The notes below the pieces were generated by a model. The model made no database searches and was not told the origin of the DNA. It was given only the letters and a program-made list of their open reading frames with translations. Below are positions 2,476 to 48,670 of a stretch of 59,846 nucleotides of DNA, one piece after another (within the stretch, counting starts at the first letter, position 1; every line of letters starts with the position of its first letter). A program made the translations under genes and the position numbers. This DNA comes from Nemertoderma westbladi (Eukaryota > Animalia > Xenacoelomorpha): contig JAUCBJ010007575.1 of the NCBI GenBank assembly GCA_032718475.1, forward strand, positions 1 to 59,846, given 5' to 3'.

Positions 2476-3297
<822 letters not shown>

Positions 3298-27781: not shown

Positions 27782-28730
27782 ATGGGCGAAGCTCAAGCCG
27801 GAGGCACCGGTTATCACGGTTTAGGAATTGGTAAATTTACTGCCACTGACCCTTTGAATTCGGGTAAAGAGTTCACGAAATGGTTACGATCGCTGGAACG
27901 AGCGATGAGGTTAGCGAGATTTGTGGATCCTGAAACTAAACTCGATGCATTATTCTACGAATCGGGTCGATCATTGAAAGATATAGCGGAGCACCTACCT
28001 AACCTGCCTGCAATAGAACCGCCACGAAACGCGTACCAAGAAGTGACGGACAAGCTTACTGAATACTTCACTCCGCGCAGAAACGTATCGCACGCTACAA
28101 TGCTGTTCATCGATTGTTCGCAGTTCGAAGATCAGAGCACAGTCGATTATGTGGTTAAACTTCGCGAGTTAGCTGTAGACTGTGAGTTTGGCGACTTACC
28201 AGCAGTTAATCGCCGCTTGAAAGAGCAAGTTCTGTCAAAAGGAACAAATATGCGGCTGAAAGCCAAGGCAATTGAACAGGACTGGACAATCGACGAGATT
28301 GTAAGACATGCAAAGATTATGGAAGACTCTAAACTTCAATTGGCCGACATGAGCGAAACTACACGACTACTGCAGAAAGTCAAACTCGAGGAAACCGATA
28401 AGGCCAAGGAAGCCAAAAAGATCCAGCACCGATATTCTCACCTGAATATGAAAACCCGATTCGGAAATACAAGACCTGGAATATCTCAACAAAGTTCCGG
28501 TTCACAACAGAATCCACACAATGAGAGGAGTCAAGTTGACAACAATTATCGATACTCACACCAAACCAATCAGGCACCACAAACCGAATGATGCCTTGGG
28601 TGTAATAAACAACACAGAGGGCGCTATTGTCCAGCCCATAACAGTAGCTGTTTTATATGCGGACACACGGGCCATTGGCGGACACGATGTCCGCAAATTA
28701 ACCCACAAAATGCGTCCCTTTCAAGCTAGA
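27782..28730 (+). pseudogene. gag: Gypsy gag with a premature stop before two zinc knuckles
   Basis: Gag-like YFTPRRN..Q..DQSTVDYVVKLRELAVDCEFG. TGA at 28589-28591 is followed in frame by CLGCNKQHRGRYC and CFICGHTGHWRTRC. Confidence 0.8.
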
Positions 28731-30743
28731 GGAGGCAGATCTAATTATCGCCAGCAGTTTCATATGAACAGACCCATGGGTGGGCCACACTACAGCAAAA
28801 GAATAGATGGAGAAGATCTGGAAGAACAGGTTTTTGATGAAACTGGTACCGGTACCGGTGATCATTACTGCTCCTGTGTTGATGATTCCTACAAAGAGGA
28901 CCCCCAGTTTCCAGACGAGGATCCAGATTATTTCGGTGAATGGTGCCACAAAGTTATTGGCGACCCCTTCGAGGATGTTAGCTTACAACTGAAAATTAAT
29001 GGAACTCTGATATGGGTTGAAATAGACTCATGCTGCTCTGTAACGATGATGGATGCATTCACGTTTAATAATCTCTGGCCCAACGCCCCACGATTGCATC
29101 CTCCCTTACGACCAGCATTTACTTATTGTAATCATAAAATTCCTATAGAAGGTTGGTTTATGGCGGAAATATCAACCAAAAATGCATCTATACAAGACCG
29201 TATAATGGTTGTATCTGGTAAAAGTTCTTCAAAACCGCTAATTTCGGGAAAAACTGCACTTAACTTGGGTATTCTGGCTGTTGCCAGGAAGAATCATTGT
29301 TTTAGTAACAGCCCTGACTCTTTTGGAAACTTTTACAATTTCAATGATATCGCCAATGAATTAGTGTTTAAGAAAATAGATGCAGAGAAATCAACTAACA
29401 ATGCTGATAAGAATATGTTACCAATGAACATTGTACATTGTAATGAAATATTCAGATCCACCATTGGCAAGTATCTTCATGGTCAAGTTGAATTAATGAT
29501 AGACACGACGGTCAAACCCATTACCCAAACTCCACGGAAGATCCCATTCTGTTACCAGGAACGCCTAGAGCAACATTTGGACAAACTGCTAAAAGAGGAC
29601 ATCATCGAACACGCCCCAACTAACATCCCAACGACATGGGTATCCAATATTGTATGTGCTCCCAAACCGAAGGATTCAGACCCAAATGCCCTGAGATTTT
29701 GTCTGGACTGTCGAGCGGCTAATACAGCTATATACCGTAACAAGAATGATCTGCCCACATTCGATGATATACTGTTTGCTGTTACAGGCAGCACAGTTTT
29801 CAGTCATCTAGACCTCAATAATGGATACCATCAACTAGAACTGTCTGCAGAAAATAGACCTATCACTACCTTTTATACACACCTCGGAAACATGAGATAT
29901 AAACGCCTCCCATTTGGTATAATATCTGCCCAGTATGAGTTCGATTGGGTGATAAGGCGAACTATCTCTGGAATTACAGGGGCGAGGAATATCTCCGACG
30001 ACATAATTGTCTTTGGGAAAACCGCCCACGATCACGATATAGCTCTGCAGCTAGTATTGGAAGCATTACTAAGCGCTGGGCTTACACTGAAACGGGAGAA
30101 ATGCGAATTCAGAGTCTCTAAAACCAAGTTCTTTGGGATTATCTTGAGCAAGGACGGCATATCACCTAATCCCAGTAAAGTACAAGCCATAAAGGATATG
30201 CGACCACCCACATGCAAAGAAGATGTGAGATCTCTCTTAGCCATGGTAGGAGCATCCCGTATGTTTATTCCAAATTTCGCCATCCTCACTGCTCCACTGA
30301 GAGAATTGACCAAAGATGACGTGCCCTTCATCTGGAACAATGATCTAATGGAATGTTTTGAAGCGATTCGCCATTGCTTATCAGAACATTGTCTTTTGGG
30401 CCATTTTGACCCACAATCTCAAACGGAGCTTCATGTGGACTTTCACAAAACTGGAATCGGTGCCATTTTGGTTCAACTCGACAACAAAACTGGAGAATGG
30501 ATTCCAAAAATGTATGCCAGTAGATCTACCACAGGCCCAGAATCTAGATATAGTCAAATTGAGGGAGAATGTTTAGCTGTAAGGTGGGGATCAGACCGGT
30601 TTCGACTATTTCTATTGGGTAACCCATATACCATTATAACCGATCACAAACCTCTCGAGATAATGTTATCCAAGAAACACCCTCTAAAGAGTCTTCCTCT
30701 AAGAATAGAGAGATGGATCATGTATCTCCAAGAGTTCGACTAC
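28730..30743 (+). pseudogene. pol: Gypsy pol (protease, reverse transcriptase, RNase H), truncated
   Basis: Protease IDSCCSVT; RT LDLNNGYHQ, RLPFGI, NISDDIIVFG; RNase H YSQIEGECLA, TDHKPL. The last ~40 codons of the listed ORF are read-through into host repeat. Confidence 0.9.
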
Positions 30744-31397
30744 GAATTAAGGTTGAAATATGATATGCAGCCGTATAACCGTATAATAAGACTTAAAATA
30801 AACCTAATATCAGTTAAAATAATGCATGCAACCGTATTGGAAGTTCCAGTGCTTATGGCTGCACGTTATATTTAAACTGTATTCCAGAAAAGAGTTGTAA
30901 TTTAGTGTGGGCTGGTTTATCTAAACAGATAATTCTCAGAAAAGTTCGAGTAATTCCGATTATTTGAAAGTTTTCATTACTTGATATTGGAATAAATAGA
31001 AATATTGATGTAATTCATATCCAATTTAATTTGTATCACTAATTAATTGCAGTTAATACATCAAAGTTACGGTAAACAATCATAAAATTAGCATATAATG
31101 GTTGCTATGAAGCTATGCAGAAGAATCCAGACGTGTTTAAGAGATTATTTACTAAGTTAGTGATAGTTAGTTATAGAAGTATAAGTACGTTCGTCCTATA
31201 GGCCGCAAATCTGCAATAAGGTACTTTACTGCGTTAACAGTAAAACACTAGAACGCTGAAAAGTTCGCATAATATTGTTGCAAATGTACCAATTGTTGAT
31301 ATCGCACGTAAACCTTTTAGAGTTTATTTACGGCAGCAGTAGAGACAGCCTTCTTAGATGGGAGTCCATGCTGGTCTCTCACTTCAGAGTATACAAA

Positions 31398-32051
31398 AGT
31401 AGTAGGGTCTTGGTCCTCTCTGCGACAGTTAGACCACACTGACACCCATTGGGTGTCATATGACACCCAATTATCACCCTATGGGTGTCATTGGGTGTCG
31501 TTGGCGCCAGACTGTCTGGGTGACACCTCCCAATTAGGCTAATTAGACCCTAATTGACAGGTGTCATCAATTAATTAGTACAATTAAACCCTAACAGGTG
31601 TCATATGACTCCTAATTAGGGTTTAATTGATTATCCTAATTAATCAGACTGATTAGCGCCCTGACACACAATGGGTCATCAGTGTTGTCTAACTGTCGCA
31701 GAGAGGAGCAAGAGGGTGTCATAAGTGACACCGCAGCTCTTTTATTTATTAATACTTATTTATTTGTACCTAATTTTAATTAATTATTTGTATTCTATTT
31801 TACTTTATTTATTCATTTGTACTTTATTTTAAATTAATTAATTATTTGTATTCTATTTTACTTTATTTATTCATTTGTACTTTATTTTAAATTAATTAAT
31901 TATTTGTATTCTATTTTACTTTATTTATTCATTGGTACTTTATTTTAAATTAATTAATTGTATTACTTTTACTTTATACATTGATTTCTATTTTTAGATT
32001 AATTAGTTTTATTTTACCAACGAGATCACTATGACATAATGTCTATATTTA
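31398..32051 (+). repeat. left TIR of the Polinton-like element
   Basis: Reverse complement of 47710-48301, with three rather than two copies of a 58-bp AT-rich subrepeat. Confidence 0.95.
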
Positions 32052-32539
32052 TCGTTATAATGGCTATGGTATACGGCTCCCTACTGGCAACTATCAACTA
32101 CGTTCATCGGCGGGGAGCCCTCCTCTGCCATCATTATTCATTAAGTTGCACAACATGCATTGGATCTACACGTATACCCCCAAGGCAAATATAAATGAGC
32201 GGTCCCGTCTGTTAGCAGCCCCCTCGATGACTCACTAATAATCCCAACGCAGCTTTGACTACAGCAAATCCGTATACCGCTCAAGGCTATTGCTCTAGCG
32301 GCCCTCCTTTGTTCTCACTATAGCCGGCATCACTCGGGTCCTTTCCTATATCCAGGCAGCCCGTATCATAACAATGAAGCGCCTCTAATTACGCATTCCT
32401 CTCTACTAATCCCTTTCCTTTGCACCAGACCTGCTTCTGTTATATAGTCAACTCAACATAATTAGTCAAGATGCCTACAGGAGTTTTCTAATAGATTCAT
32501 CAACACGAGAAGTTGCCCTGGTTACCGCTTATGCATGAA

Positions 32540-32660
32540 CAACCAATCAGCGGGCTTCATTTCTACTGCTGCGTTCTGATTGGCTCATTTAAGAGACAAG
32601 GGCCTCCCTTACTAACCGAATTGCTATTTAATACATCCCCGCCAATTTATTAGATCATTA
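32540..32660 (+). promoter_or_regulatory. putative Pol II promoter for the pPolB transcription unit
   Basis: CCAAT at 32543, inverted CCAAT at 32579, TATTTAA at 32625, and Inr-like TCATT at 32655, 30 bp downstream. Confidence 0.5.
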
Positions 32661-32785
32661 TTTCAATTGCAAGTTACGATTAACATCATTTACCATTATT
32701 TTGTTTTTGAATTTAATATTATTTATTAAGAATATTTATTTGTTATCATCAGTCAACAACCCACTTATATAGTTGTATTATTGTC

Positions 32786-33595
32786 ATTTCGCCGCGTTAT
32801 CGCTCATCGTCGACAACAAACTTTCCGTGTATCCGTCGCGTAATATTCTTCCGATACCATTCCGTTCTATCGCTGTATCGGTAAATAAATTCTCTCGTCG
32901 TCCACATCAACCAACTTCCTCATCGCCACCGAACTTCCAAACTTCTTCTTTCCGTGAATATTAACTGCCACCGTAAGTCAAATCTACCTTCCACCATCTG
33001 ACGATACTATCGATGCCGATAGCAAACAATTCACATTTAGGCCTAATGTCTACCGATACAACAGTATTGCAGTAGGCTCATTATTAATTACTGTCAGACT
33101 GTGGTGGTAGCGATAGCCTAAACCGTGATCGAGGCATTCGATCAATAGGCCTACAGCTGTTTATCTGCTTACAGTATTTTTATCTTTTTACAAATAATCA
33201 ACTTATTTTTCTAGTGTAATTTCGCCGCGTTAACGCTCATTGTCAACATCGAACTTTCCGCTTAGCCGTCGCGTAATATTCCAATATTTCTAATTTCCGA
33301 TACCATTCCGTTCTATCGGTTAATAAACTCTCTCGTCGTCCACGTCAACCAACTTCCTCACGAGCTTCCAAACTTCATCTTTCCGTGAATATTTACTAAC
33401 ACCGTAAGTAAAATCTGCCTTCCACCATCTGACTGTACTATCGATGCCAGTAGCAAACAATTTACATTTATTATCTACCGGTACAACAGTATTGCAGTAG
33501 ACTCATTATTAATTACTGTCAGAATGCGGTGGTACCGATAGCCTAAACCGTGAACGAAGCATTCGATCAATAGGTCTACATTACCTATCTGCTTG
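32786..33595 (+). repeat. ~433-bp tandem duplication carrying putative non-coding leader exons
   Basis: Two copies (32786, 33219), each with a GTAAGT donor (32973, 33404). The acceptor block ending TTTTTCTAG at 33214 recurs at 34115. Confidence 0.7.
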
Positions 33596-34122
33596 TCTAC
33601 CCAACTACCGCTACCGGATCATTCGAGTTAGCCTACTGCCACTATAGTAGCGATATAGACCCTACTGAACAACAATGAATACTGCAGTTTTCACTATATA
33701 ACATACTGACTAACTGAGTTCTCACACAGCGATTAGCTAGGCCTATTGTTGATTTGTATTGGTTAACGCTACCGCTACGTCTGACTTCTAGCAGACTTTT
33801 CACTAGCACTATTGCACTGACTGACTGTTGACTGCTGTTTATAGACCCTCTTTCCACGAATAATAACTGCCATCGCTATTATGTCTTGGTTATCGCCACT
33901 ATCTAACCGCTGGTACACTAACACTACCACACTAGACACTACCGACCGTCTGCTTTATGTTTCACTGACTGATTGTTACAATACAGCAATAGGCCTAACT
34001 GTACAAACACAGTATTGTTGCCTAGTAACCAATTAATAACTACTGTTTTACTTTATTTTTAGCAAGTATATAGTATTTTTTTATCTTTTTACAAATAATC
34101 AACGTATTTTTCTAGATTCAAG

Positions 34123-37100
34123 ATGCCTATGTCTAGCAATAAAGTTAGCTGCCCCATCTGCGACAAAGAGATGCGGAGCGATACTTTATCCCGCCATATT
34201 AAAATTCATTTCGCGCAATATCGATGCGACTGCTGTCCGACTTGGTCCTCGGAAAAGAAGACGCTGGTTGGCCATCTTGTTTCGTGTCCTCAGGGGGGAA
34301 CAGGATTTAGTTACGTAAACGAGCCAGCCGATTGCCGCTGCGGGGATTCGCTCACCCTATCTTCCTTCACTGAGCATGAATGCTACACTCGACTTTTTTC
34401 GCGGAAACGCAAAACTCCGACTACCTCCCACTCATCCCCCATCAACTCTACTCCAGAACAAGTCGGCGGTGGCGACTCCAATAACGAACCTTCAACTTCG
34501 CGAGATTCTATTTCCCCAAACAATCCATTTCAACCACCCTCTAACGGAAGCGCACACGGACGACTGTTTACCTATAACAACGACCTCGCAGAAACAAGAC
34601 TCGACGCTGAATTAACATTAAACGAAAATTTTCCACACATTCAAGAACACGTTAGTAGCCATCTACAAAGTGCTTTGGGAACTTTTTTAAGAGTCTGGCT
34701 TACAATCAATATCGTAATGGAGCGTGAAACCAGCGAGGGTTTTCAAATTGAATCATTCTGTTTTAAATCTAGCGGTAACAATAATCAAATTCTAAGTAAT
34801 AGCGACTTTAATAACTGGTTTTCTAGCGCCGTCAATCGTATCGATCAGCTGTTAAGCGTGTTTCTCTGCCTCGGCTCGGGTTGGCGCATAATAGCCATCG
34901 AGCGAATAACTATTGAGATTGCGCGGTCCCAACGCAACCCCTATTTAAAGGGTCAAGGCTTCAATAATTCTAAATTATTATTAAATAAAAAATGTACCGT
35001 AAGCGTAGACTGCCCGCTGGGGGAATGCTTTAAATACGCAGTATTGGCCGCCGCAAATTATAAGAAAATTGATAGAAAAAATAATAATATTAGTAGAATT
35101 TCAACGTATACTCCTTTCCTAAACATGTTTGATTTTTCCAATTTAAGTTTCCCGGTGGACAGAGTAACTGGTATTCCCCAGTTTCTGAAAGCAAACCCTA
35201 TATACTGTATAAACCTTCTTTATTGGAGTAATACGGAAGAACTCTCCATTCTAAGTCAGCCAGATAGCGCGCACTGTTCCGGTAAAACTGTACTAAACTT
35301 ATTATTTATCGAAGCCACAAGCAAAAACCCCGCCCACTACGTAGCTATTACTAACATAGATAGACTAATAAATTCAAAAGATTCTAACGGTAACAAGACG
35401 CACTGCGAACGATGTCTCAGAGGCTTTTACACTGACAAATCATTGGAAGAACATCGAGAGCGGTGCTATACGGGTAATCGCCAACTCGAGTATATGCCCG
35501 AAAATCTCTTGGTTAAATTTGACAGATACGATAAGACTCTATCCCCTCCTTTCTGTATATACGCCGACATTGAAACTATTCTAGAACCTACAAACAATAT
35601 TAAACTCCCACAGAAACATATAGCTAGCGCGGCAGCCTTTTATACAGTACCAAATCAGAAATTAATTAACCCTCCTAAAACAGATGTTCAAATTTTCCAT
35701 GATGATGGCAGTAACCACGTAATGCGCAACTTTCTAACCGCTATGGAAAGTCATTGTAGGGAGTTATACGATTGGTCCATTTCTAGCACAAACACGCACG
35801 CCCCCATGCAACTCACTACTAGCCAACAAACTGACTTTAATAACGCTACACAATGCTACGTCTGCAACTGTAATTTAACCCCCGATTCGCATAATTTAAA
35901 CCTCAATGACAATCTCAGCACCAAAGTCCGCGATCACGATCATTATAGCGGGGAGTATCGAGGGGCTGCTTGCGTCAGCTGCAACAGGAAACTTTCCCTA
36001 AAACGGAATAATTTTTATATTATATTTCATAACTTGAGGAAATTCGATATGCATTTACTGCTAAAAGAAGGAATGACCGATAGTTCTAGAACACACTGGA
36101 AAATGACTGTAATACCAAAAAACACTGAAACTTATATTCACCTTAAAGTTAGCTTTCCAATCGATCCGAGTACACCAACAGCCAACGCTAAAGAAAGTAT
36201 CTCCATTAATTTTCTAGATTCCTATCAATTTATGACTGCCAGCCTAGATAATCTTAGTAGTTATCTCACTAAAAATAATAGTAACCTAGCAACAGCCATA
36301 CCCCATACACTAGCTCAAATGACCCAACTCTATCCCAATATTAGCGATAACACAATAAAAAACAAGGGCGTATTCCCATATTCCTACATTCAAAATATTT
36401 CAAACCTACACGAAACTACACTCCCCCCAATAGAAAGCTTCTATAATGATCTCAAATTGGAACAATGTAGCGCAGACAACTATCAGCGCGCGCTTACTAC
36501 TTGGGATGAATTAAACTGCGCAACAATCTTCGACTATATGATTGGCTATTTGGTTCTAGACGTTACCCTATTGGCTGATACTTTCGAGCAGTTCCGATCC
36601 CTCTGTCTTACTAATTATGGACTCGAGCCCGTAATGTACTTCACTGCCCCGGGATTAACTTACGACGCGGCGCTGAAATTTACGCAATCAGAAATTCAAT
36701 TACTATCAGACGCTTCCATCTACTCGGACTTTGAAACAAATATTAGGGGTGGTCTAGTTTTCTTGAATACACATTCCGTAGACGCAAGTATTCCCGATAA
36801 ACCCGACTACGACTCCAGTCTCCCCGAGAAATATCTAATTCCCATCGATGCGAATAACCTTTACGGCTGCGCCCTGAGCCAGAAACTTCCCTACGCTAAT
36901 ATTAAACTCGTAACTACCCCCATAGACCTAGCTACAGTAGACGCGAGTGGGGACACTGGTTATTATTGCATAGTTGATCTACATTACCCGAAAGAAATTC
37001 ATGATTTGACCGCCGATCTGCCTCTAGGAGCGGAGAAGATGTCAGTCCCTAAATCCTTTCTTAGCGAATACATGGAAGATCTTTGGGAGCATTACAATCT

Positions 37101-38175
37101 CACCGATACGGCTACCTGTAGACCATACAACGATACCTGTACTAAGCTACTACTACATCAGTTTAATAAGGTTGAATACGGTATCCATATTAAGCTACTT
37201 CAGCTCTATTTGAAGCTCGGTCTTAAACTTACACAAGTACATAGGGTCTACTCTTTCTCACAAAAATATATTTTCAAGGACTACATTAGTTTTAATACGA
37301 ATAAAAGACAGTCGGCAAATAACCCATTCGAGGTTCTATTTTATAAGTTGATGAACAATGCCTTGTATGGGAAATGCCTCCAAAAGGTTAGAGACCGCGT
37401 TTCGTTCAGGTTATGCAATAGCGACGAACAATGCGATTTGCTCTTAGCCAAGCCCAATCATGAATCGTTTGTTGTCTTTACCCCCAACTTGAGTGGTCAT
37501 ACTTTCACTAAAGAGGCTGTTTGCCTAAATCAGGGCGTGTTCATCGGTTGCACTATACTAGATCTATCTAAGCTACAGATGTACGACCTATTTTACAACA
37601 AACTGAAGCCTCTAGAACAAAAACTGGATTGTCAGATTCGCTGTCTTGCCGGTGACACGGATTCTCTAATGCTAAGCGTAACTAATGCACCACAGCTAAC
37701 CTTTCTACGGGCAATGTTTGAGGGTGGTTTCCTAGATACTTCCAACTACAGCACAACACATCCACTCTATACCATTAAACACAAAGCGGCTCTCGGCTTC
37801 GTAAAAAATGAGAGCTGCGGTCTGCAGTATAAACAGTGGGTTTTCCTTAAACCAAAGGTCTATAGTTTTCAATCCTATGATGCCCCAATCAAGAAAACCG
37901 CCAAAGGTGTATCTAGATCTGTTGTCGCTAAGCAACTAACACACGAGGATTATGCAGACTGTTTTGAAAACGAGGCAATGCTCTTCCGCTATAACTCTAC
38001 CTTCACTTCTAGAAAGCATCAAATTTTTACTGGTCATGTCTATAAGAAGGCACTAACGCTCTGGGATACGAAATCATATTGGAGTAGTAAATATAGCAGC
38101 AAACCATACGGGCACTATAGCACTAAGCTTGTTAGACCGGCGAAACGAGTAGTAATCCCCCCTACTAGGATTTAA
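34123..38175 (+). CDS. pPolB: protein-primed family B DNA polymerase (Polinton type), 1350 aa
   Basis: Exo motifs YADIET, FHNLRKFD, YLVLDV; polymerase motifs RGG, DANNLYG, KLMNNALYGK, GDTDS, KPKVY, KGV. Endonuclease-VII-like insert CYVC..RDHDHYSGEYRGAACVSCN. N-terminal zinc fingers and GSGW region. ORF uninterrupted. Confidence 0.96.
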   Translation: MPMSSNKVSCPICDKEMRSDTLSRHIKIHFAQYRCDCCPTWSSEKKTLVGHLVSCPQGGTGFSYVNEPADCRCGDSLTLSSFTEHECYTRLFSRKRKTPTTSHSSPINSTPEQVGGGDSNNEPSTSRDSISPNNPFQPPSNGSAHGRLFTYNNDLAETRLDAELTLNENFPHIQEHVSSHLQSALGTFLRVWLTINIVMERETSEGFQIESFCFKSSGNNNQILSNSDFNNWFSSAVNRIDQLLSVFLCLGSGWRIIAIERITIEIARSQRNPYLKGQGFNNSKLLLNKKCTVSVDCPLGECFKYAVLAAANYKKIDRKNNNISRISTYTPFLNMFDFSNLSFPVDRVTGIPQFLKANPIYCINLLYWSNTEELSILSQPDSAHCSGKTVLNLLFIEATSKNPAHYVAITNIDRLINSKDSNGNKTHCERCLRGFYTDKSLEEHRERCYTGNRQLEYMPENLLVKFDRYDKTLSPPFCIYADIETILEPTNNIKLPQKHIASAAAFYTVPNQKLINPPKTDVQIFHDDGSNHVMRNFLTAMESHCRELYDWSISSTNTHAPMQLTTSQQTDFNNATQCYVCNCNLTPDSHNLNLNDNLSTKVRDHDHYSGEYRGAACVSCNRKLSLKRNNFYIIFHNLRKFDMHLLLKEGMTDSSRTHWKMTVIPKNTETYIHLKVSFPIDPSTPTANAKESISINFLDSYQFMTASLDNLSSYLTKNNSNLATAIPHTLAQMTQLYPNISDNTIKNKGVFPYSYIQNISNLHETTLPPIESFYNDLKLEQCSADNYQRALTTWDELNCATIFDYMIGYLVLDVTLLADTFEQFRSLCLTNYGLEPVMYFTAPGLTYDAALKFTQSEIQLLSDASIYSDFETNIRGGLVFLNTHSVDASIPDKPDYDSSLPEKYLIPIDANNLYGCALSQKLPYANIKLVTTPIDLATVDASGDTGYYCIVDLHYPKEIHDLTADLPLGAEKMSVPKSFLSEYMEDLWEHYNLTDTATCRPYNDTCTKLLLHQFNKVEYGIHIKLLQLYLKLGLKLTQVHRVYSFSQKYIFKDYISFNTNKRQSANNPFEVLFYKLMNNALYGKCLQKVRDRVSFRLCNSDEQCDLLLAKPNHESFVVFTPNLSGHTFTKEAVCLNQGVFIGCTILDLSKLQMYDLFYNKLKPLEQKLDCQIRCLAGDTDSLMLSVTNAPQLTFLRAMFEGGFLDTSNYSTTHPLYTIKHKAALGFVKNESCGLQYKQWVFLKPKVYSFQSYDAPIKKTAKGVSRSVVAKQLTHEDYADCFENEAMLFRYNSTFTSRKHQIFTGHVYKKALTLWDTKSYWSSKYSSKPYGHYSTKLVRPAKRVVIPPTRI

Positions 38176-38189
38176 ATTTATTTTTCTAG

Positions 38190-38705
38190 AATAAGAAATT
38201 GAACAACAAAATAGAAATAACCAATAAACAGTTTACCGGAAAAAACATTGCCAAATTTGAACTAGAGAAAATTTCACAGCAAATTACAGGTCAAAGTTGC
38301 TTAAAACCAAACATGTTTATCTACAAAGGTGACGATTCAACTTTAATGCTATTTCCCAGCGGCGCAGTAACAATTGTAGGCCTATGCAATAATTTAGCTA
38401 GTGAATTGCTTTATTTAAAACAAACTATTGGTATACAATTACAAAATTTGAAACTTAATACCGAAACACGAACTATTATTTTTCCAAGTGTTAATTTTAA
38501 ATTATTAATGAAAAAATGTGGACATCATACAATTAATAATAAAGCAATATTTATTAGCTATACCCCCGAATTATTTTGCGCGATTAGAATATATATAGGA
38601 CGTGCATATTTCAGTGTATTTCATAGTAATAAAATCGTTTCCATGTGTCCTGCCGGTGAATTCCCCGGATCATTATCTATTTTACAAACTTTATTATTAA
38701 ATTAG
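38190..38705 (+). CDS. divergent TATA-binding-protein-like protein (~170 aa); no ATG at the ORF start, probably spliced
   Basis: Two TBP-like repeats: IEITNKQFT..FELEKI..TLMLFPSGAVTIVG and LKLNTETRT..VNFKLL..SYTPELFCAIRI..FSVFHSNKIV. Preceded by TTTTTCTAG (AG at 38188-38189). Confidence 0.7.
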   Translation, partial: NKKLNNKIEITNKQFTGKNIAKFELEKISQQITGQSCLKPNMFIYKGDDSTLMLFPSGAVTIVGLCNNLASELLYLKQTIGIQLQNLKLNTETRTIIFPSVNFKLLMKKCGHHTINNKAIFISYTPELFCAIRIYIGRAYFSVFHSNKIVSMCPAGEFPGSLSILQTLLLN

Positions 38706-38759
38706 TTTATTTACTATGGTATACATGAAAGTTTACTATATTATTTATTTTGTGTTGGT

Positions 38760-39665
38760 TTTTATTTCTCCATGAGTGGGGTTTGAATCCGTGACCATCG
38801 CCGTGTTACCTACTTTTTATAATTGCATTAGTAGGACTCGAACCCTGGTTTAACTTATTTTGTGTTGGTGTTATAATGGTCGCGAGTAGGGCTTGAACCC
38901 GTGACCCGCTGTTTTCCCTATTTTGTGTTTACTTTTTATAATTCCCATAAAACGGGATATGAATAGGGATCGAACCCGTGACCATATGTTTTTCCTATTT
39001 TATGTTTAGTTTAGTCTAGTTATTCTATGTTTACTTTTTATATTTTCATGACTAGGATTCGAACCCTGGTTTAACTTATTTTGTGTTGGATTTATAATGG
39101 TCGCGAGTAGGGAATGAACCTATGACCTCCTGTTTATTTTCCATAAAACGGGATACGAATAGGGATTGAACCTGTGACCATATGTTTATCCTATTTTGTG
39201 TTTAGTTTAGGTACTCTAGTTATTCTATGTTTACTTTTTATATTTTCATGATTAGGATTCTAACCCTGGTTTAACTTATTTTGTGTTGGATTTATAATGG
39301 TCGCGAGTAGGGATTGAACCCATGACCATCTGTTTATCCTATTTTGTGTTTACTTTTTATATTTTTCCATAAAACAGGATACGAGAAGGGGTCGAACATG
39401 TGACCACCTGTTTATCCTATTTTATGTTTAGTTTAGTTACTCTAGTTATTCTATGTTTACTTTTTATATTTTTTATAAAACGGACACGAGTAGGGATTGA
39501 ACCCGTGACCATATGTTTTCCTAATTTATGTTTAGTTTAGTCTAGTTATTCTATGTTTACTTTTATATTTTCATCTCTAGGATTCGAACCCTGGTTTAAC
39601 TTATTTTGTGTTGGTTTTTTAATGGTCGCGAGTAGGGATTGAACCTATGACCTCCTGTTTATTTT
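38760..39665 (-). repeat. degenerate tandem array with about 13 tRNA B-box-like motifs
   Basis: Minus-strand GGTTCGAGTCC (38834), GGTTCAAGCCC (38889), GGTTCGATCCC (38966), GGTTCGAATCC (39055, ~39580) and GGTTCAATCCC variants, all in one orientation. Confidence 0.75.
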
Positions 39666-40335
39666 CCATTGGTTGTTTTATATTTAATATGTCACGCTCA
39701 TCTCTCTTTTTCTTTTCATCTTCACTAAAAATATCTTCGGATTTTTTAAATTTTTTGGTAACGGAGCCATTAGTTTTCCTTTCTATGTGTTTCCATATGA
39801 CGAGATAAATTGTCTTGTCTCATTTCTTTATTACAAACCAAACAACTTTTATGTCTATGCATTATAAAGCAATGTCAATTGATAATATTGAATTTTCACA
39901 TTATATTTATGTTAAATTATAAATTTATGCTACAATTATTATTTATATTATAAAAAACAGAAATATTCGAGTTATATTGCATTATATATTTTGCATTGAA
40001 GTGGAATACTTTAGATGTTGGGGGAATCTGGTTTGCGAGGGATATTTGAATGGTGAGTATAACTATCCTTGAGAGCTAGTGCAACGCTATCTCACTATGG
40101 ATGGGCTTTACCATTGTACTCGCATCTGCTCTCTCATTGGCTGCTCGATGCCTCCGATTAAGGGTCTAAGACCTTCAAGCTGACCTTTTGCTTAGTTTTC
40201 TAATTAGAAGGTCGTGAGTTTGCACCCTAGAAGAGCATTATTCTTTTTCCTAGCTCTCGGCTAACTCTAGTACACTCTAGCTTTGACTTTCCCGGCTATA
40301 GTGATAGTATGCAACCTTGGGAGTTAATGTGAGTA

Positions 40336-42634
40336 CATATTTCAGTGTATTTCATAGTAATAAAATCGTTTCCATGTGTCCTACCGGTGAATTCCCCGGA
40401 TCATTATCTATTTTACAAACCGTTAGGAGCCCGCTTGACAGCGGGATACTTACTGTAAGAATCTTCAGGATACATTACATTGACTGACACTGACTGACTG
40501 ATAATTATCTAGGTTAAGGCACTTCCTGCCTGGCGATTTTGATGAAATTTTGCAAGTACATTGCTTTTGAGGTTCATAATCGCGTTACAAAATTTCAGAT
40601 CGATTCTATGTGTGGTATTCGATATATTTAGTTTTTTGACATTGTTTTGTCGCGAAATTAAAAGCAATGGTAAAATAACAGCTGGTGTTCATGATGAAAT
40701 ATGGCTTAATATGTTATACACAGTCATAGTAAAACGTATTGGTTGCCAAGTTTTACTAGTAGGCTATAAGGAAAGTCAATGTTTACTCACACATAAGCTG
40801 TTGGTTTCTAATGTATTACCCCATAAGCTGATTGCTCTCCCAGTGCTTCCTAAGGGTATATCTACAATAAGGTTACTCACTCTGCTATGTTAGGGGGTGG
40901 ATCAGGAGAATGAATTTTAGTTACACAAAGCAGTGTGTTGTGTCCTATTGCAGTCGATACTCACTGTGGATTGCAAAATGTTTTATAGTTGACCTACACT
41001 ATAATACAGTAGTTGCATGTATTTAAGGAGCCCGCTCTGGCCTACTGCCTAACTTAGCAGTAATACCTATATTACATATACACATATTAATAATATTCTT
41101 ATTTTTTTTATTACATACGATTTTTTAGCTGAAACGATTTTTTAGCTGAAGCATTAATAGTGTAAATTAATTTAATTATATTTTAATACCATTACTACAT
41201 TGGCATACTGTAAGATAAGTTTTAATATTTCTTACAAATAGTGGTGCGAGCATAAATCAAATCACGCAAATTTAAAAGAACCGGGTGTGTTGTCATAGCA
41301 AAGTTTCAGTTTTTATTATGTGGGACGAGCCACAAAGTACTGCTGAGAAAGACTGAAAGGTTCAAAGACTGTATGTCAACAATGTTATTATTATTATAGT
41401 CTGCGCCACAAACAGAATATGCCAAATAATTAAATTAGCAATATAAATTTCAGAAAAATAGCTATCGGACTTGGCTGAAGAAATCGAATTATAATCCACT
41501 TAGTTTGTTATATTGATGATATTATTACTCTCTGGGAATGTGTTGGAATGGGAGATTGTAAATTATTATTGAACAGCAAATATTACATATCCCATAAAAG
41601 TCGTCATAATTAATTGTGTAGAAACAATTGTTCACCTTCTCGTTTAGATTAATTAGTAAATAAATAAATTAGTTTAGATATTTTCTGTTAGCGAATTTAT
41701 TTCGAATAATAAAAAAGTGTGTAGGCCGATTGTATGGTTGTTTAATTTGCGTTATTATTTTTCGCCGCGACCTAGACTTCTATTAATTGTTAAATCTAAT
41801 GGTTTTCAAAAAGAAAGGTAACCGTACCTGTACTGGTAAATCTAACTTGTTATTTATCTGGTTGTGAATCATGGGCATTTTCTTATAAATATTCGGTTGT
41901 TAGTGGCAGCAAAGTTTCATTTTTTATTATGTGGGGCAAGCCACAAAGTCAGCTATGTATCATCACACCATTTAGACAATTGTTTAGTTTAGTATTGGCT
42001 AGGATTCTTCCCCCCGGGCTCCTTCCAGCCAGCTTGCTGGCTCTCTAGTTTACTATGGTATGCATGAAAGTTTACTATATTATTAATTTTGTGTTGGTTT
42101 TTATTTTTCCGTGAGTAGGGTTTGAATCCGTGACCATCTGTTTATCCTATTTTGTGTTTAGTTTAGTTACTCTATGTTAAAGTGAATTTTCACATTATAT
42201 TTATGTTAAATTATAAATTTATGCTACAATTATTATTTATATTATAAAAACAGAAATATTCGAGTTATATTGCATTATATATTTTACATTGAAGAGGAAT
42301 ACTTTAGATGTGGGGGGGAACCTGGTTTGCGAGGGATATTTGAATGGTGAGTATAACTATCCTTGAGAGCTAGTGCAACGCTATCTCACTATGGATGGGC
42401 TTTACCATTGTACTCGCATCTGCTCTCTCATTGGCTGCTCGATGCCTCCGATTAAGGGTCTAAGGCCTTCAAGCTGACCATTTGCTTAGTTTTCTAATTA
42501 GAAGGTCGTGAGTTTGGACCCTAGAAGAGCATTATTCTTTTTCCTAGCTCTCGGCTAACTCTAGTACACTCTAGCTTTGACTCTCCCGCCGGCTATAGTT
42601 ATAGTATGCAACCTTGGGAGTTAATGTGAGTAAA
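40336..42634 (+). repeat. second copy of an internal duplication of 38605-40335
   Basis: 40336-40420 repeats the 3' end of the TBP-like ORF (38605-38689); 42049-42140 repeats 38705-38800; 42183-42634 repeats 39889-40335. Confidence 0.85.
40423..42048 (+). mobile_element. non-autonomous Helentron-type (DINE/HINE-like) element nested in the Polinton
   Basis: 5' subTIR AGGAGCCCG with an adjacent hairpin, (ACTG)n tract, 3' inverted subTIR CGGGCTCCT, stem-loop AGCCAGCTTGCTGGCT, ends CTAG before TT. Confidence 0.7.
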
Positions 42635-45600
42635 GACCAAGAGATTAGACTTCAGGCTCCCTCTATTGGTTCATTCTTCTTAACTTTATAAAATAACTCA
42701 ACCCATATTTAAAGTTTTAAAAATTATGACTTAGTCGACTAATTTTCCAAAGTATATTATAAAAACATATAATTTCTTGAATTAATAGACCTAATAGTAA
42801 TAAATAATGTGGGGGGTAAATACATTTATAATTCTAATATAATTATTAAGGATAAATAGTCCTAATACTAATATAATTATGTAATAGTAAGCAAAATTTT
42901 TATGCGCAACCATCAGAGATTATTTGGATATAAAAGATCACATAGCAGGAGGCTAACTTGCTGGGATCGACAAAGGCTTTGTGTGCGGTGTGCCGCTGTC
43001 TTATATCGGGTGGATGAGAGAGCCCCCTCGGGCGTAACATTGTGAACATGGGCTATATTGCTAGAGAGAGAACTACATATAAGACCATGGCCGGCCCTCA
43101 TGCAAATTTAGCGGCGCCAAGGCTAATGGGGCACCTCGAAGACAGTATGGCTATAGTAGAGTAGAATCGACATACGAGTCCATAGCTAAAATACATCTGC
43201 CATGGAGCCTTCGCGTAGCACTATGCTCACCAAATATATTTATAATTCTCTATCCGCGAAATTTTCAGGAATTTTAAATTTTTGCCGTCGCTTCGCGGAA
43301 AAAATAAAAAGTAAACACAAAATAGGATATACAGATTGTCATAGATTTGATTCCCTACCCCCCGACCAGGGTCATTATGACCCTCCCCGGTGTTTGTACA
43401 ACATTTTATAGCCCGGTAGTATTGGGGTTATTATGTGACTCATGAAAATAAATCTTAAATACAATACAACTGTTCCATCTTGGTGAAGTGGATGCAATGT
43501 ATTTACAAATCGAGTGTGGATCAGGATAGTTTTCGTTAAGGTTTCACCTTGGTGAAGTGGAAGCATTGTATTCACATTTCGAGTACCATTTTTATTGAAA
43601 CTATGGGGCATTTTATATTAGCCGATTTTTCAAAATTTGTAAAGTTTTGAGGGTTTTTATTGAAAATATAGGGATTTAGGGATTAACATTCAAATTGACT
43701 ACGAAGAAGCCATAGGGATCATTAATGGTATGTTGAGACTCAGAAATTTTCAGGAATTTTAAATTTTGGTCGTCGCTTCGCGGAAAATATAAAAAGTAAA
43801 CACAAAATAGGATATACAGATTGTCATAGATTCGATTCCCTATCTCGACCAGGGTCATTATGACCCTCCCCCGATATTTATACAACATTTTATAGCCCGG
43901 TAGTATTATGATTAAAGCTACTAAACTAAAACATAACAAAGTGCAATTATCCTATCTGTTCCAACTCAGTGTCACTAGTTTAGATAATATACTATAATAA
44001 TAGTGATAGCAGATGCTTTTAATTTCGCGATGAAATAATGTTAGCAAACGAAATATAGCGAATACATCATAAATAGAGTTTTAAATTAGTATGGTTTTAT
44101 CTGTAATTTTTTATTTTGAACGCAATAGTAAAAAGATTATTATGTGACTCATGAAAATAAATCTTAAATAAAATACAAATGTTCCACCTTGGTGAAGTGG
44201 ATGCAATGTATTTACATCTCAAGTGTGGATCAGGTTTGTAGCCAGGATTTTTAGGTTGGGTAGACCTGGGAATATCAGAGTAGGCAGGCGGAAATGTTAA
44301 TTTGGATAAATTTTACAATAGACTTAACTGATTAAATGTTTACAGCGGATAGAAAGCAAACCTACAGTAGGATGTACATGGAGTCCACCATTAGTTCATC
44401 ATTTGTATACAAAGCATAATTTAAACAATGGACGAAATCGCGTAGATCCGCGTCTACTAGTCTACTGACGCATTAACTGTCTCCTTGAATGGCTTACTAT
44501 CAATCATACTACTAAAAATTCATTGGAGAGTGGGATTGAACTCGTTGTATAGTAAAAAAGTAAAACGAGTGAAATACTATATGTATAATTACAGGATGGC
44601 TGGGTGCAACCTTCGTTCACCTACAACCTCCCCCCAGGTGCAATCTTTGTTCGCGAAAATTTTCAGGAATTTTAAATTTTGCAGTCGCATGGAGTGATAA
44701 CCCTTAGGTGAAAGCTAAATTTGCTCTACTTTAATCAAATGGGGCATTAAAGCTATGAGTATATTTTCCTTTACATCCTCCCCCCGATCTTACACAAATC
44801 TGGGTAAAAGGCAGTTGAAGGGCTATCATTCCCAACATATGCGGTCCTCCCTTTAATGTTTCATTGTTCTATTCATAGTCGCCTTTGAGAATTTCTCGGG
44901 AAAATAAGGATGAGGGGCTATCACTTTCAACCCATGCGGCCCTCCCTTTCACGATTTCATTGAACTATCCATAGTATGAACAATCAAACCAAAGCCTTTG
45001 AATATAGGACTGAATATCCTCGCGTCTTATCAGCAGCGCCATGGCTAACGGCTTAATATTAACAGTGAAGCATCTAAAAGACAGAGTATCTATGATAGGG
45101 CAGAACAGCATACTTACAGCTTAGAGGTGGGCGCGCTGAAAACTTTGCTCGCCATCAATACACACAAAGCATCGCCTGATGGAATGAGTAATAGCGTGGA
45201 TATTTTCATTTTGGTGAATAAAATTTATAGCATTAATCACGAAAATCGCTAAATAATATATTTTAACTAAAATCAACTCTGATAAACAACTTGCATATCG
45301 AGTTTGTAAAGGGATTGGCTGTTTATTTAGGGGTTAACATTCAAAATGATTATGAACGAGCAATAGGGTCATTAATGGTATGCTGAGACTCACTTATTTC
45401 ATGGCTCGCTCTCATAGTATAGATTAACTAATAGAGAAAAATGAAAAATAATCGGTTAAATATCTTATATTTTTTAAACAATATGGGGAAACAAGAATAA
45501 ATAATTTACCGACAACATCAATATTAAATAATATAACAACAACGGATAAATAATTTACCAACAACATTAATAATAAATAATATAAGAACATCAACAATAA

Positions 45601-45647
45601 CAAAAGATATAATCAGAACAGTTTTTAATAAATAGAGACTGTTTACA

Positions 45648-47360
45648 TTAATAGGGTTGCTGGCCTCCGAGAGTAACGTTTGGTTTAACCCTTTTAGGGC
45701 CCGATACTATTAATGGTTGCGATAATTTTCTCTTTAATAGATTGTTGAGATAGCCTTTTCTTGGGGGGTGAAATAGATTAAGGTGTGTTTGCTGCGGGAG
45801 AAAGATGCCTTCTCTGAGAGAACGTTTTAGTAATTCGAAAAGGCGCGCGATGGTAAAGTCGTTGGATAGGGTGATAGTGTTGGTATTTTTCGTATTGGTG
45901 AATATAATTTCTGTTGGTTTGTTCTCGATATGAATGTAAGGACTGAGATAGTAGTGAGAGTTGGGTGGGTTGGTTATATTTATCGTGAGAAAATCGCTGC
46001 CCCTAATATTGAGACCGTTGGTGAACTGAAAAGTGGTATTCTCTTCGTCTTTCATTAAAATGGGCCAGATACCGACATATTTTTCGGATTTGAACTTATA
46101 GATAAAGGCTGCGATACTGCTATTTATGAGATAGCGCTGGTGATTGGGGATCGTAATCTGCTTTGGTTTGAAAGTAAATTGTATAGCCATTTCCTTGAAG
46201 CTGATTAGAGCCTCGCGCGCTTGAATCGTGTTAGCTATAGTAAAGGATTCGTTAAATTTTCTCTCGGTTATCTGTAAATCAATTTCTGAATCACTGATAC
46301 AACTTTGTATCGATATTCGCTCGGAAATGTTGTCTTTGTAGACGTTAAGTTCATCGCAGCAGACACATTCACTATCCTCGATGGTTGAATCGAACCATTT
46401 CAATTCGCCGACCTCGGTTGGTGTAAGAAGAATCATGCCCCTAGAAGAAACAATAGCCTTTCCATCGTCAACCTCGTAGCCATTGGTGATCGCTAAATTG
46501 CGCTCATTCCGAATATTTGTAACAAACCCAAAAGTGCAATAGTCAAAAGCAACCCAATTGCCCGGTTTTAGGACAAGGTGAGTAGTAGGATTAATAAAAG
46601 GGCGACAGATGTTTACATATTGTTGAAATAAATTGGCGCAGGCGACGGAAAATGTGATCCATGAACTGTTTACAGTGTCTTCCAGCTTTATTAACTCGAG
46701 TGGTTTCATTGGGTTAATACTTCCATAGGTGCCAACTCTATAATTGAATCCAAAGTAATAGGAGACTTTATTGGCGAAAAAGCAAGTGAGCTCATTCAAT
46801 TTCTCGCCGAAAGCGAGAACATCCTTGTCGAAAAGTTTAAAGAAACGAGTCTCCTCTTCCTCGGTCGGAGTCGACGAGTTCCAGATGAGAAGAAGAATCG
46901 AGTTTGCGATACTATGAAAATCAAATAAGCGATCATCGGAGAAGAAGGAGGTTACAAGAGTGGTTAAACCCAGTAGACGATTTGCCACATCTTGGTTGAT
47001 GTTTTCTCGAATAAAATCGACTATACTAGTTGGAATCGTAAACGTCTCGGGCGAAGTAGTTAGATTGAACGTTATTTTGTTGTCCCTTTTTAAAAGTTTG
47101 AAACCGTGGTTGGAGGAATGAAGTTTATTATCGTCGAGGGTTTGATATTGTCCATCGTGAAGTTCGTAGCAGGCACGGAAAATAAAGTGCGCGTAGTTTG
47201 CCGGAATCGGGATGGGTTGGTTTAAGGTTGTATTTATCGTTAACGGGAAGAGTTTGTTCGCCGAATCGAAATATAGACCAAACGAGTTGTCTTGTAGCAT
47301 AAACTGATTTTCGTTGCAAACCAGATCGTTGCTTGAATAGCTGATTTCTGAATGTGCCAT
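45648..47360 (-). CDS. 570-aa hypothetical protein of the Polinton-like element; possible PC4-like segments and C-terminal NLS
   Basis: Long intact ATG-initiated ORF in AT-rich DNA with upstream promoter motifs; basic tail KRKLSQPLIVSGPKRVK. The ORF is well supported; the function is tentative. Confidence 0.8.
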   Translation of the reverse strand: MAHSEISYSSNDLVCNENQFMLQDNSFGLYFDSANKLFPLTINTTLNQPIPIPANYAHFIFRACYELHDGQYQTLDDNKLHSSNHGFKLLKRDNKITFNLTTSPETFTIPTSIVDFIRENINQDVANRLLGLTTLVTSFFSDDRLFDFHSIANSILLLIWNSSTPTEEEETRFFKLFDKDVLAFGEKLNELTCFFANKVSYYFGFNYRVGTYGSINPMKPLELIKLEDTVNSSWITFSVACANLFQQYVNICRPFINPTTHLVLKPGNWVAFDYCTFGFVTNIRNERNLAITNGYEVDDGKAIVSSRGMILLTPTEVGELKWFDSTIEDSECVCCDELNVYKDNISERISIQSCISDSEIDLQITERKFNESFTIANTIQAREALISFKEMAIQFTFKPKQITIPNHQRYLINSSIAAFIYKFKSEKYVGIWPILMKDEENTTFQFTNGLNIRGSDFLTINITNPPNSHYYLSPYIHIENKPTEIIFTNTKNTNTITLSNDFTIARLFELLKRSLREGIFLPQQTHLNLFHPPRKGYLNNLLKRKLSQPLIVSGPKRVKPNVTLGGQQPY

Positions 47361-47474
47361 CGTGATTGTGTACCGGTAACTCGTTTAGGAAATAAAAATA
47401 AATAAATACTTTTACGAAAATAATTAAAACTTTTCAGGAAAACAAAGAGACAATGATTGGGAATGTGGTGAACG

Positions 47475-47580
47475 GGGGCTATTATAGAGGGGGCTAGAAT
47501 GGGTTAGCCAATCAGGGAACAGGAGGGAGAAAAGATTGTATAATTAAACCAATCAGAGAGCAGCTTTGATGACGTCACAT
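47475..47580 (-). promoter_or_regulatory. putative Pol II promoter of the 570-aa ORF
   Basis: CRE palindrome TGACGTCA at 47570-47577, CCAATCAG at 47549 and 47508, TATAAT on the minus strand at 47486-47481. Confidence 0.55.
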
Positions 47581-47709
47581 CAGGCGAGATAATGATTGCC
47601 CAATGTTATTCAATGGTAGACAGAGTGGCGCCATTGAATAACGAAGACAAAGGGGCCGCGAGAGGAAAGATTATAAAGTTAACGATAAGGGATCTATAAA
47701 CCATAGAGC

Positions 47710-48301
47710 TAAATATAGGCATTATGTCATAGTGATCTCGTTGGTAATATAAAAACTAATTAATCTAAAAATAGAAATCAATGTATTAAGTAAAAGTAAT
47801 ACAATTAATTAATTTAAAATAAAGTACAAATGAATAAATAAAGTAAAATAGAATACAAATAATTAATTAAAATAAAGTACAAATGAATAAATAAAGTAAA
47901 ATAGAATACAAATAATTAATTAAAATTAGGTACAAATAAATAAGTATTAATAAATAAAAGAGCTGCGGTGTCACTTATGACACCCTCTTGCTCCTCTCTG
48001 CGACAGTTAGACAACACTGATGACCCATTATGTGTCAGGGCGCTAATCAGTCTGATTAATTAGGATAATCAATTAAACCCTAATTAGGAGTCATATGACA
48101 CCTGTTAGGGTTTAATTGTACTAATTAATTGATGACACCTGTCAATTAGGGTCTAATTAGACTAATTGGGAGGTGTCACCCAGACAGTCTGGCGCCAATG
48201 ACACCCAATGACACCCATAGGGTGATAATCGGGTGTCATATGACACCCAATGGGTGTCAGTGTGGTCTAACTGTCGCAGAGAGGACCAAGACCCTACTAA
48301 T
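47710..48301 (-). repeat. right TIR of the Polinton-like element
   Basis: Reverse complement of 31398-32051 with few substitutions. Confidence 0.95.
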
Positions 48302-48670
48302 TACAAAACCTCTGGATGGCACATTCACAATAATGCTACGCCGGGGTCATTGTGTCAAGATGAATGAACACATCTCCATAACCAGACTCTGAACAACATC
48401 GGAAGTGTTTTATTAGTCTCCGCAAGCTTTTACTTGAACTGAGCTGCCACCGCCTTGTAGGACATTGCATTCACCGTGTGGACCAGCCTGTGCATAATCT
48501 TGTGCTTTGGCGGCCTCATGGAACGACTATGTATGGTGGTAAGCCCATGACTTTCTTGAGACGCATTTTAAGAACACTGGACTTGAAGATGCGGATGATC
48601 TACCAAATGTCATGGGTGATAGGGAGTTGAGGTGGAGCAATTTTATTGACAATCCGACACATCTTTCTTA
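48302..48670 (+). pseudogene. continuation of the RTE-like fragment split by the Polinton (left part at ~31335-31397)
   Basis: Near-identical to 18336-18705. Confidence 0.7.

Follow-up and report, generated by a model that had tools for sequence, protein, structure and literature searches.

A gene-poor Polinton-like element in Nemertoderma westbladi and its possible dependence on a helper Polinton

How can an element with the ends of a Polinton have been inserted, and how could it spread, if it carries a polymerase gene but no detectable genes for integration or for a particle? This question is raised by a locus in contig JAUCBJ010007575.1 of Nemertoderma westbladi, of which a stretch of 59,846 nucleotides (the window) was analysed. 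We use the terms Polinton and Maverick (polintovirus, adintovirus) as defined in the open texts of PMC10748475, PMC8097293 and PMC8502044. The element spans 31398..48301 (16,904 bp) with both ends intact, and its features are listed in Table 1. The terminal inverted repeats (TIRs) are about 600 bp long; aligned to each other, they match at 586 positions, mismatch at 14 and have 64 gap columns, most of these belonging to one 58-bp repeat unit. The end motif, which the open text of PMC8097293 gives as (AGT)2 or (AG)3 for Polintons/Mavericks, is exact at the left end and has one difference at the right end, the second base being the point where the two ends disagree. TIR length, duplication size and total length lie within the Polinton ranges in the open text of PMC10748475 (100-1,500 bp, 5-8 bp and 13-25 kb). 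The empty site is represented by a paralog of the host repeat (17970-18831) that has no insertion and contains TACAAA once, near 18336-18341, and the same empty-site form is present in sequencing runs X1-X3. The termini, the near-identical TIRs and the exact 6-bp duplication of the preliminary description are thus confirmed.

Table 1. Features of the element (positions in the window).
Feature	Position	Strand	Remark
Target-site duplication TACAAA, left copy	31392..31397	.	single copy in empty-site paralog
Left TIR	31398..32051	+	opens with (AGT)2 end motif
Branched palindrome within left TIR	31408..31718	.	fold -114.9 kcal/mol, z -18.8, 0/100 shuffles
AT-rich 58-bp tandem repeat in left TIR	31776..31959	.	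3.2 copies; fewer at right end
CCAAT-box cluster, predicted left promoter	32543..32646	+	motif positions; function predicted
Duplicated block, 82% identical, predicted non-coding leader exons without ATG	32779..33594	+	splicing predicted
Acceptor-like motif 7 nt before pPolB ATG	34106..34115	+	
pPolB (DNA polymerase B, protein-primed), 1350 aa	34123..38175	+	PF03175, E 3.7e-18
Donor-like site, phase 0, after pPolB codon 292	34999..35004	+	use predicted
Acceptor-like motif; TBP-like frame opens at next base, phase 0	38180..38189	+	
TBP-like frame, 171 codons, open from 38190	38190..38705	+	weak PF00352
Non-coding interior, local duplications and repeats, no gene remnants	38710..45640	.	
Array of 13 B-box-like motifs within repeat	38779..39645	-	copies not independent
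Duplicated fragment of TBP-like 3' end, 98% identical	40333..40420	+	
Orphan ORF, 570 aa	45648..47360	-	third-codon composition resembles that of pPolB; lacks a transmembrane stretch
CCAAT, CRE-like and TATA-like motifs, predicted right promoter	47456..47604	-	function predicted
Right TIR	47710..48301	-	
Target-site duplication TACAAA, right copy	48302..48307	.	

As noticed before, only three ATG-initiated ORFs of at least 100 aa lie inside the element (34123-38175 and 38313-38705 on the forward strand, 45648-47360 on the reverse strand); the coding share is 37%, and no Rfam families or tRNAs were found. The first ORF encodes pPolB, with zinc fingers, a predicted terminal protein and vOTU, an exonuclease, an EndoVII-like insert and the palm (domain order taken from the open text of PMC11161782). 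The Exo I-III and Pol A-C motifs and the vOTU Cys/His are all present, and the catalytic positions are conserved in every relative with a residue there (21-24 of 21-24), which together with the Pfam match upholds the earlier gene assignment. In a tree of 137 sequences, this pPolB falls into a 39-member clade (FastTree support 1.0) that includes locus L001, which carries an rve integrase with chromo, an ATPase, TBP and PLA2. L001 and L008, the closest relatives with gene context, are conventional Polintons.

The second frame did not pass the PF00352 cutoff (E 5e-4), and its first ATG is codon 42, giving an ORF of 130 aa, with homology from near codon 9. The homolog in L001 (E 3e-6 to the element's frame) passes PF00352 with E 2e-15, and a profile of these two sequences matches solved TBPs (E 6e-12) across both TBP repeats. 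By sequence, the frame is a member of the TBP family (PF00352), as had been suggested, and its product may bind DNA. Further relatives were found neither among 4 candidates nor among 96 viral stretches; TBP appears as a gene label in the figure legends on MELD viruses. Since the gene also occurs in L001, a conventional Polinton whose polymerase belongs to the same clade, it is not special to the element; in L001 it sits among the late genes, away from pPolB. The hexamer ATAAAC stands 35-56 nt ahead of 6 of the 13 genes in L001 and of 2 of the 5 in L008; in other loci, only 4 of 100 late genes have it at that distance. We predict that it is a late-gene box in this clade, its link to TBP coming from these two loci. 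It is absent at 35-56 nt before the element's own genes and occurs 89 nt upstream of Met42, a possible alternative start of the TBP-like protein. The element thus retains a TBP-like gene but lacks the predicted late-gene targets of its product.

The 570-aa ORF is an orphan. It gave no match in Pfam, PHROGs, NCBIfam or PDB sequences, and hhalign against the integrase, ATPase and capsid profiles of related loci stayed below 4% probability for all 37 clusters (0.5% and 0.1% in further comparisons with capsid cluster profiles). A word-index search (0 of 7,279 candidates), viral contigs (0 of 28) and a blastp search for internal repeats were negative, phage records gave one weak match (E 0.04), and in the ESM Atlas the whole protein had no usable match and residues 185-340 stayed below 0.8. 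Two single-sequence AlphaFold models had a pLDDT of 30.5 and 28.7, too low to be of use. The sole match among 1.84 billion representatives (HMMER) was rejected, its score being summed over a tandem-repeat protein. Residues 105-205 resemble a TFIIB-like cyclin-fold repeat by eye, and TFIIB/cyclin searches gave no match. The preliminary description had considered a PC4-like gene, for which PC4 profile and PDB-sequence searches with the whole protein and segments gave no match; its proposed replication-plus-transcription module stands for pPolB and the TBP-like gene, a PC4-like gene having no support from these searches.

Genes for integration and particle formation were sought throughout the element. 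With 1,134 ORFs taken from 105 loci, and with 37 profiles of clusters, no convincing match was obtained outside pPolB. The rve integrase (profiles of 43 and 50 sequences, and six-frame tblastn), the packaging ATPase (8- and 30-sequence profiles) and capsid genes (cluster profiles of related loci) gave no match. One capsid cluster scanned corresponds to Pfam MCP_V20, and the minor-capsid cluster matches the adenovirus penton weakly (E 0.02); the L008-type cluster, taken by synteny to be the putative major capsid protein, found no match in profile searches. For the protease, no Pfam match was found in the three ORFs, and a 5-member cluster, presumably the protease, scored 2.6 bits at best. Stop codons occur in the interior at 6.6-7.7 per 100 codons in all six frames, which is random density. 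The preliminary description had seen no integrase, ATPase or capsid gene even as a remnant and had proposed searching the interior for decayed integrase and capsid genes; none came to light. Because the 6-bp duplication is a true one and no integrase is on board, integration most likely occurred in trans, one of two options raised earlier.

The reading that we tentatively prefer is that of a Polinton derivative acting as a self-copying satellite, which is integrated and probably packaged by a separate helper Polinton of the same genome. Its own protein-primed polymerase would copy it, and helper proteins would insert and probably package it. Two inward-facing RNA polymerase II promoters would drive a left unit (spliced leader and pPolB) and a right unit (the orphan ORF), and an alternative splice would join pPolB codons 1-292 to the TBP-like frame, and the resulting fusion with the terminal protein could be cleaved by the vOTU protease near residue 277, where there is a conserved G-x-G site. 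In trans, the TBP-like protein would target boxes in the late promoters of the integrase, ATPase and capsid genes of the helper, so that the satellite would turn on its helper. The non-coding filler may keep the element about as long as ordinary Mavericks, which cluster around ~17 kb according to the open text of PMC8097293, and so fit the helper capsid.

The in-frame terminal-protein/TBP fusion is predicted from splice signals. The acceptor-like 10-mer occurs three times in 59.8 kb, always at the predicted places, with 0.31 expected and three reached in 2 of 100 shuffles. Donors of the form GT[AG]AG number only three in 32050-38700 and share the three preceding bases, the donor motif alone being weak (4 of 100 shuffles). 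Of the three acceptor and donor sites, two are copies that stem from a single duplication; the duplicated block has two donor-like sites, 32973 and 33404, and one acceptor-like site, 33214. The phase agreement of donor and acceptor has a 1-in-3 chance. An equivalent donor before the vOTU Cys was not found in L008, the one clade locus checked. Translation of the TBP-like frame could instead start at TTG or Met42.

In contigs of runs X1, X2 and X3 from two studies, the summed contig depth over pPolB is 48-57 times that of the flank, this depth being no copy number; in X5 (organism B), the listed pieces inside the element are scraps at depth 2-4, and this run was set aside. A two-segment Polinton, in which the element supplies polymerase and activator and a partner with the same ends, lacking polymerase and TBP, supplies integrase, ATPase, protease and capsids, both being mutually dependent, is possible but rather doubtful. 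Such a partner would explain why an intact TBP-like gene is retained though its predicted late targets are gone, and Polinton-related insertions without polB are reported from a butterfly in the open text of 10.1101/2025.02.07.637071. Among the 32 pieces listed of ~34,660, none is a high-depth second pPolB type at 80-95% identity, as expected with such a partner, but a helper less than 80% identical would escape this check. Moreover, no partner was observed, viral contigs gave no TIR match, and the TBP-like gene of L001 lies among late genes rather than beside pPolB; both the host repeat and the tandem AT-rich units confound TIR depth, for which reason a TIR-versus-interior comparison was rejected. 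We likewise regard as unlikely the full scheme of two interdependent integrating segments, in which a spliced terminal-protein/TBP polyprotein would activate the integrase and capsid genes of the polymerase-less partner and filler would keep the packaging length.

It is improbable that the element is a minority deletion or replacement variant of a family whose members mostly keep late genes in the 39-45 kb interval. The closest relatives with gene context are conventional, and most vertebrate Mavericks are defective in the open text of PMC8097293, but no late-gene remnants were found, and 7 kb of non-coding DNA is not expected from a simple deletion. All 10 interior bins have 0.31-8.6 times the pPolB depth (orphan ORF 0.39-1.38 times), and in X1 the interval 41396-42039 is covered, with 1 difference, by a 644-nt contig of depth 1474, the depth over pPolB being 1542-1975. 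Pieces that diverge by ~11-19% are present for pPolB, for the orphan and for 44.7-45.8 kb. Since run contigs cover polymerase, interior and orphan at 0.3 times the pPolB depth or more, the gene-poor form appears to be family-wide rather than a one-off deletion. The lowest bin (44608-45271) has only a third of the pPolB depth, and contigs, none of which spans the element, depart from the reference at 39753, 41897 and 41955, so that other copies may differ in the interior; the interior joints listed shorten the element, though repeats can fake joints. In the two long ORFs, 4 of 12 listed differences fall on third-codon positions by hand count, which says nothing on selection. We regard it as very improbable that the orphan encodes a highly diverged capsid or integration protein, which would leave the element less dependent than it appears, for although the orphan is of a size suited to a capsid protein, intact, soluble-looking and shares its third-codon composition with pPolB, and although the palindromic ends are reminiscent of parvovirus-like genomes, it matched none of the related-locus profiles or databases named above, and both functions are not expected of one protein.

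Non-autonomous Polintons were reportedly described by Kapitonov and Jurka in 2006. Like these and other trans-mobilised TIR elements (PMC6431247, open text), our proposed satellite has kept its ends and would obtain integrase in trans. Unlike them, it is no non-coding shell but has retained a transcription-factor-like gene and a replicase that is intact. The satellite phage P4 trans-activates the late genes of its helper. KSHV ORF24 is, in the open text of PMC12529657, a virus-encoded TBP mimic that chooses a non-standard late promoter, as proposed here. In both cases the difference is that the predicted targets are missing from our element itself, binding and activation being predictions. The pPolB with terminal-protein and vOTU regions, the TIRs, the 6-bp duplication, the (AGT)2 end and the size of ~17 kb are shared with Polintons/Mavericks, whereas the lack of detected integrase, ATPase, protease and capsid genes, the low coding share and the orphan gene are not; intact vertebrate Mavericks are reported to be intronless, in contrast to the splicing predicted here. 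Polinton-derived replicons that dropped the particle module also kept TP-vOTU-pPolB, but our element is integrated and flanked by a duplication, shows promoter and splice motifs of nuclear type and has no RNA polymerase. Bidnaviruses (PMC8502044, open text) have pPolB as well, and their two segments with matching termini are a model for a segmented Polinton, but our element is integrated, and no parvovirus-like capsid or NS1 was found in it. In the open texts of the literature searched, neither an integrase-less Polinton with pPolB and TBP nor a two-segment Polinton is described. Some Polinton surveys retain only integrase-linked pPolB genes (PMC10748475, open text), so that elements of this sort would be filtered out.

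Should the element be a self-copying satellite, or one of the halves of a split genome, Polintons would have life styles that depend on helpers, comparable to those of satellite phages and multipartite viruses. With a TBP-like gene but without its predicted targets, a multi-copy element of this kind allows one to test directly whether the late genes of Polintons are switched on in trans, a point that bears on when Polintons make particles, and RNA data alone are enough to check for the spliced terminal-protein/TBP product predicted here.

A minor observation concerns the palindromes of the TIRs. The right TIR adopts the same palindromic fold as the left one (-110.7 kcal/mol), and TIR palindromes are also present in loci L016 and L072, so they are not peculiar to this element.

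The 16,904-bp element is real. It breaks a host repeat, and because the uninterrupted paralog of this repeat in the window (89% and 96% identical to the two flanks) contains the hexamer TACAAA only once while TACAAA stands at each flank of the element, the 6-bp target-site duplication is real as well; the empty-site form is present also in the sequencing runs X1–X3. The terminal inverted repeats (TIRs) of about 600–650 bp align with 586 matches, 14 mismatches and 64 gap columns, and the near-identical TIRs and exact duplication of the preliminary description are thus borne out. A branched palindrome (z −18.8) is the predicted fold of the first ~310 nt of either TIR, and terminal palindromes are found also in the related Polinton loci L016 and L072. 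Such cruciform-capable palindromes occur here alongside an EndoVII-like insert in the polymerase (residues 575–624), and a role in excision is conceivable.

Only three substantial ORFs are present, as had been described, and together they make up 37% of the element. The 1350-aa ORF is a DNA polymerase B of the protein-primed type (pPolB) with the EndoVII-like insert; this ORF shares the catalytic residues of exonuclease, polymerase and vOTU with its 24 best relatives, and its best database matches are 35–37% identical. In a tree of 137 sequences, from which proteins P0061–P0120 and short loci were omitted, it forms a long branch that is sister to the other 38 clade members (support 1.0). Two clade loci, L001 and L008, have gene context. 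L001 (11226–19002) is a conventional Polinton with an rve integrase with chromodomain, ATPase, PLA2, KilA-N, TBP and a pair of related ORFs of ~150 aa, in which ATAAAC boxes precede late genes. One of these 150-aa ORFs occurs also in L008, whose 423-aa ORF we label, from synteny, as a putative major capsid, a label for which no database confirmation was obtained.

Features of the element and its surroundings (window coordinates)
Feature	Position	Strand	Remark
Polinton derivative	31398–48301
Branched palindrome, left TIR	31408–31718		fold; mirrored at right end
pPolB	34123–38175	+	1350 aa
TBP-like frame	38190–38705	+
B-box-like array	38779–39645	−	13 RNA polymerase III B-box-like motifs, spacing mostly 52–90 bp
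High-depth segments	39960–41287; 42616–43943
570-aa orphan	45648–47360	−
Deletions in some run contigs	45678–45797		3 nt and ~100 nt; near 3' end of 570-aa ORF
Acceptor-like 10-mer sites			second leader block; 7 nt upstream of pPolB ATG; directly before TBP-like frame
Host repeats sharing short pieces with interior	8093–8153; 54606–54670
Uninterrupted paralog of host repeat	17970–18831
Gypsy-type element	27782–30875		PNMA-like gag, RT, RNase H
Kinase-domain and KA1-domain ORFs	577–3246	−
Tandem array	~10200–14500		31-bp unit, ~140 copies
191-aa ORF	56474–57049	−	no match in Pfam search

When 1,134 ORFs taken from 105 related loci were used as tblastn queries, eight scraps were hit outside pPolB (E 0.004–0.05, 18–66 residues), and of the profiles of 37 gene clusters, integrase, ATPase and capsid included, none matched anything but pPolB above 3.4 bits. 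The 7-kb interior has 6.6–7.7 stops per 100 codons in every frame and consists of local duplications, the B-box-like array and short pieces in common with host repeats. The stated absence of integrase, ATPase and capsid genes, even as remnants, is confirmed by these searches and the stop density; for the protease, also not found, the test was weak. Since no integrase, ATPase or capsid gene was found in the element, in contrast to a full Polinton, we class it by gene content as a Polinton derivative. The B-box-like motifs lie within a repeat immediately after the TBP-like gene and had no match in tRNA or Rfam searches. In the left arm the GC skew is negative; it changes sign near 38.4–39 kb, remains weakly positive across most of the non-coding interior and is positive in the right arm.

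The TBP-like frame alone gives a weak match (E 5e-4); it is homologous to the TBP of L001 (E 3e-6, 23% identical), and a joint profile of the two matches both repeats of solved TBPs, which upholds the proposed identity. This homology marks the gene, at the level of sequence, as part of the clade gene set and not a peculiarity of the element. In L001, ATAAAC is found 35–56 nt upstream of 6 of the 13 genes (binomial P 7e-5; integrase, ATPase, minor-capsid candidate, PLA2 and two others), in L008 of 2/5 genes, and in other loci of 4/100 late genes. In the window, the box is absent at this distance before pPolB or the orphan, where a five-base partial match lies at −27, and it occurs 89 nt upstream of Met42 of the TBP-like frame. 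That a predicted late activator is kept with none of its predicted target genes points to an action of the TBP-like protein in trans. The 570-aa ORF has a third-codon composition like that of pPolB and no accepted homolog in any sequence library tried; its resemblance to PC4 and TFIIB was seen by eye only, and the suggested PC4-like identity found no support in these searches.

CCAAT boxes lie immediately inside either TIR. Across the window, one acceptor-like 10-mer is present three times (three were reached in 2/100 shuffles), and the plus strand at 32050–38700 has three GT[AG]AG donors with an identical preceding triplet, the third after pPolB codon 292 in phase 0. The TBP-like frame begins with 41 codons without ATG, yet its homology extends from near codon 9. 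If 34998 were spliced to 38190, the frame would gain a start, and zinc fingers, terminal protein and TBP would come to lie in one frame, given the pPolB domain order in PMC11161782; this frame would contain a G-x-G motif near residue 277, which recurs in relatives and could be the vOTU cut site. This fusion is a prediction, against which it counts that two site pairs stem from one duplication and that the donor motif is weak alone; alternatively, the frame may start at a TTG or at Met42.

Part of the pPolB–TBP stretch is present in five sequencing runs, one of which may come from the window's own source; contigs of four of these runs were compared with the window. For X1 (from study P1) and for X2/X3 (a single sample from study P2), the summed depth over pPolB is 48–57 times that of the flank, all ten interior bins reach at least 0.31 times the pPolB depth, and the orphan reaches 0.39–1.38 times, where run depth is not copy number and no single contig spans the element. 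Single X1 contigs of ~99% identity have depths of 1542 and 1975 over pPolB (flank 64), 1474 over 41396–42039 and 1104 at the orphan 5' end. Among the 32 pieces listed of about 34,660, low-depth ones with 11–19% divergence cover pPolB, the orphan and 44.7–45.8 kb. The gene-poor layout therefore looks common to a family and not like a one-off deletion, but some copies may carry extra genes: depth in bin 44608–45271 is low, and at 39753, 41897 and 41955 contigs diverge from the reference. The two high-depth segments, at up to 8.6 times the pPolB depth in some runs, may also occur in a higher-copy repeat or a shorter derivative.

The element would work like a trans-mobilised Polinton: it would replicate itself from its TIR ends, be integrated by the integrase of another element, be packaged inside that element's capsid and activate its late genes. 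Its 16.9 kb fit the ~17 kb of intact Mavericks given in PMC8097293. We tentatively prefer a one-way dependence on a helper, a separate complete Polinton; this requires only the common (AGT)2 end. A two-way dependence between the element and a second segment with the same ends would account for the TBP retention too, but it requires a polymerase-less partner, and we consider it less likely than the one-way reading. Both remaining readings rank below the helper and two-way ones: a minority deletion variant is improbable, and a cryptic capsid or integrase in the element still more so. Non-autonomous Polintons are reportedly part of the original Polinton description. No Polinton of this kind, with pPolB and TBP but no integrase, came up in the literature searched, including the portions available of PMC8502044, 10.1101/697771, PMC6431247, 10.1101/2025.02.07.637071, PMC11161782, PMC11131425, 10.64898/2026.10.13.758929, PMC10748475 and PMC8097293, whose supplements may list some.

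Elsewhere in the window, the Gypsy-type element, whose PNMA-like gag match is weak, lies immediately left of the element-bearing host repeat, and its presence makes an animal host probable. The kinase-domain and KA1-domain ORFs are probably a single MARK/AMPK-type host gene with two large exons, and the 31-bp tandem array creates several overlapping spurious ORFs.
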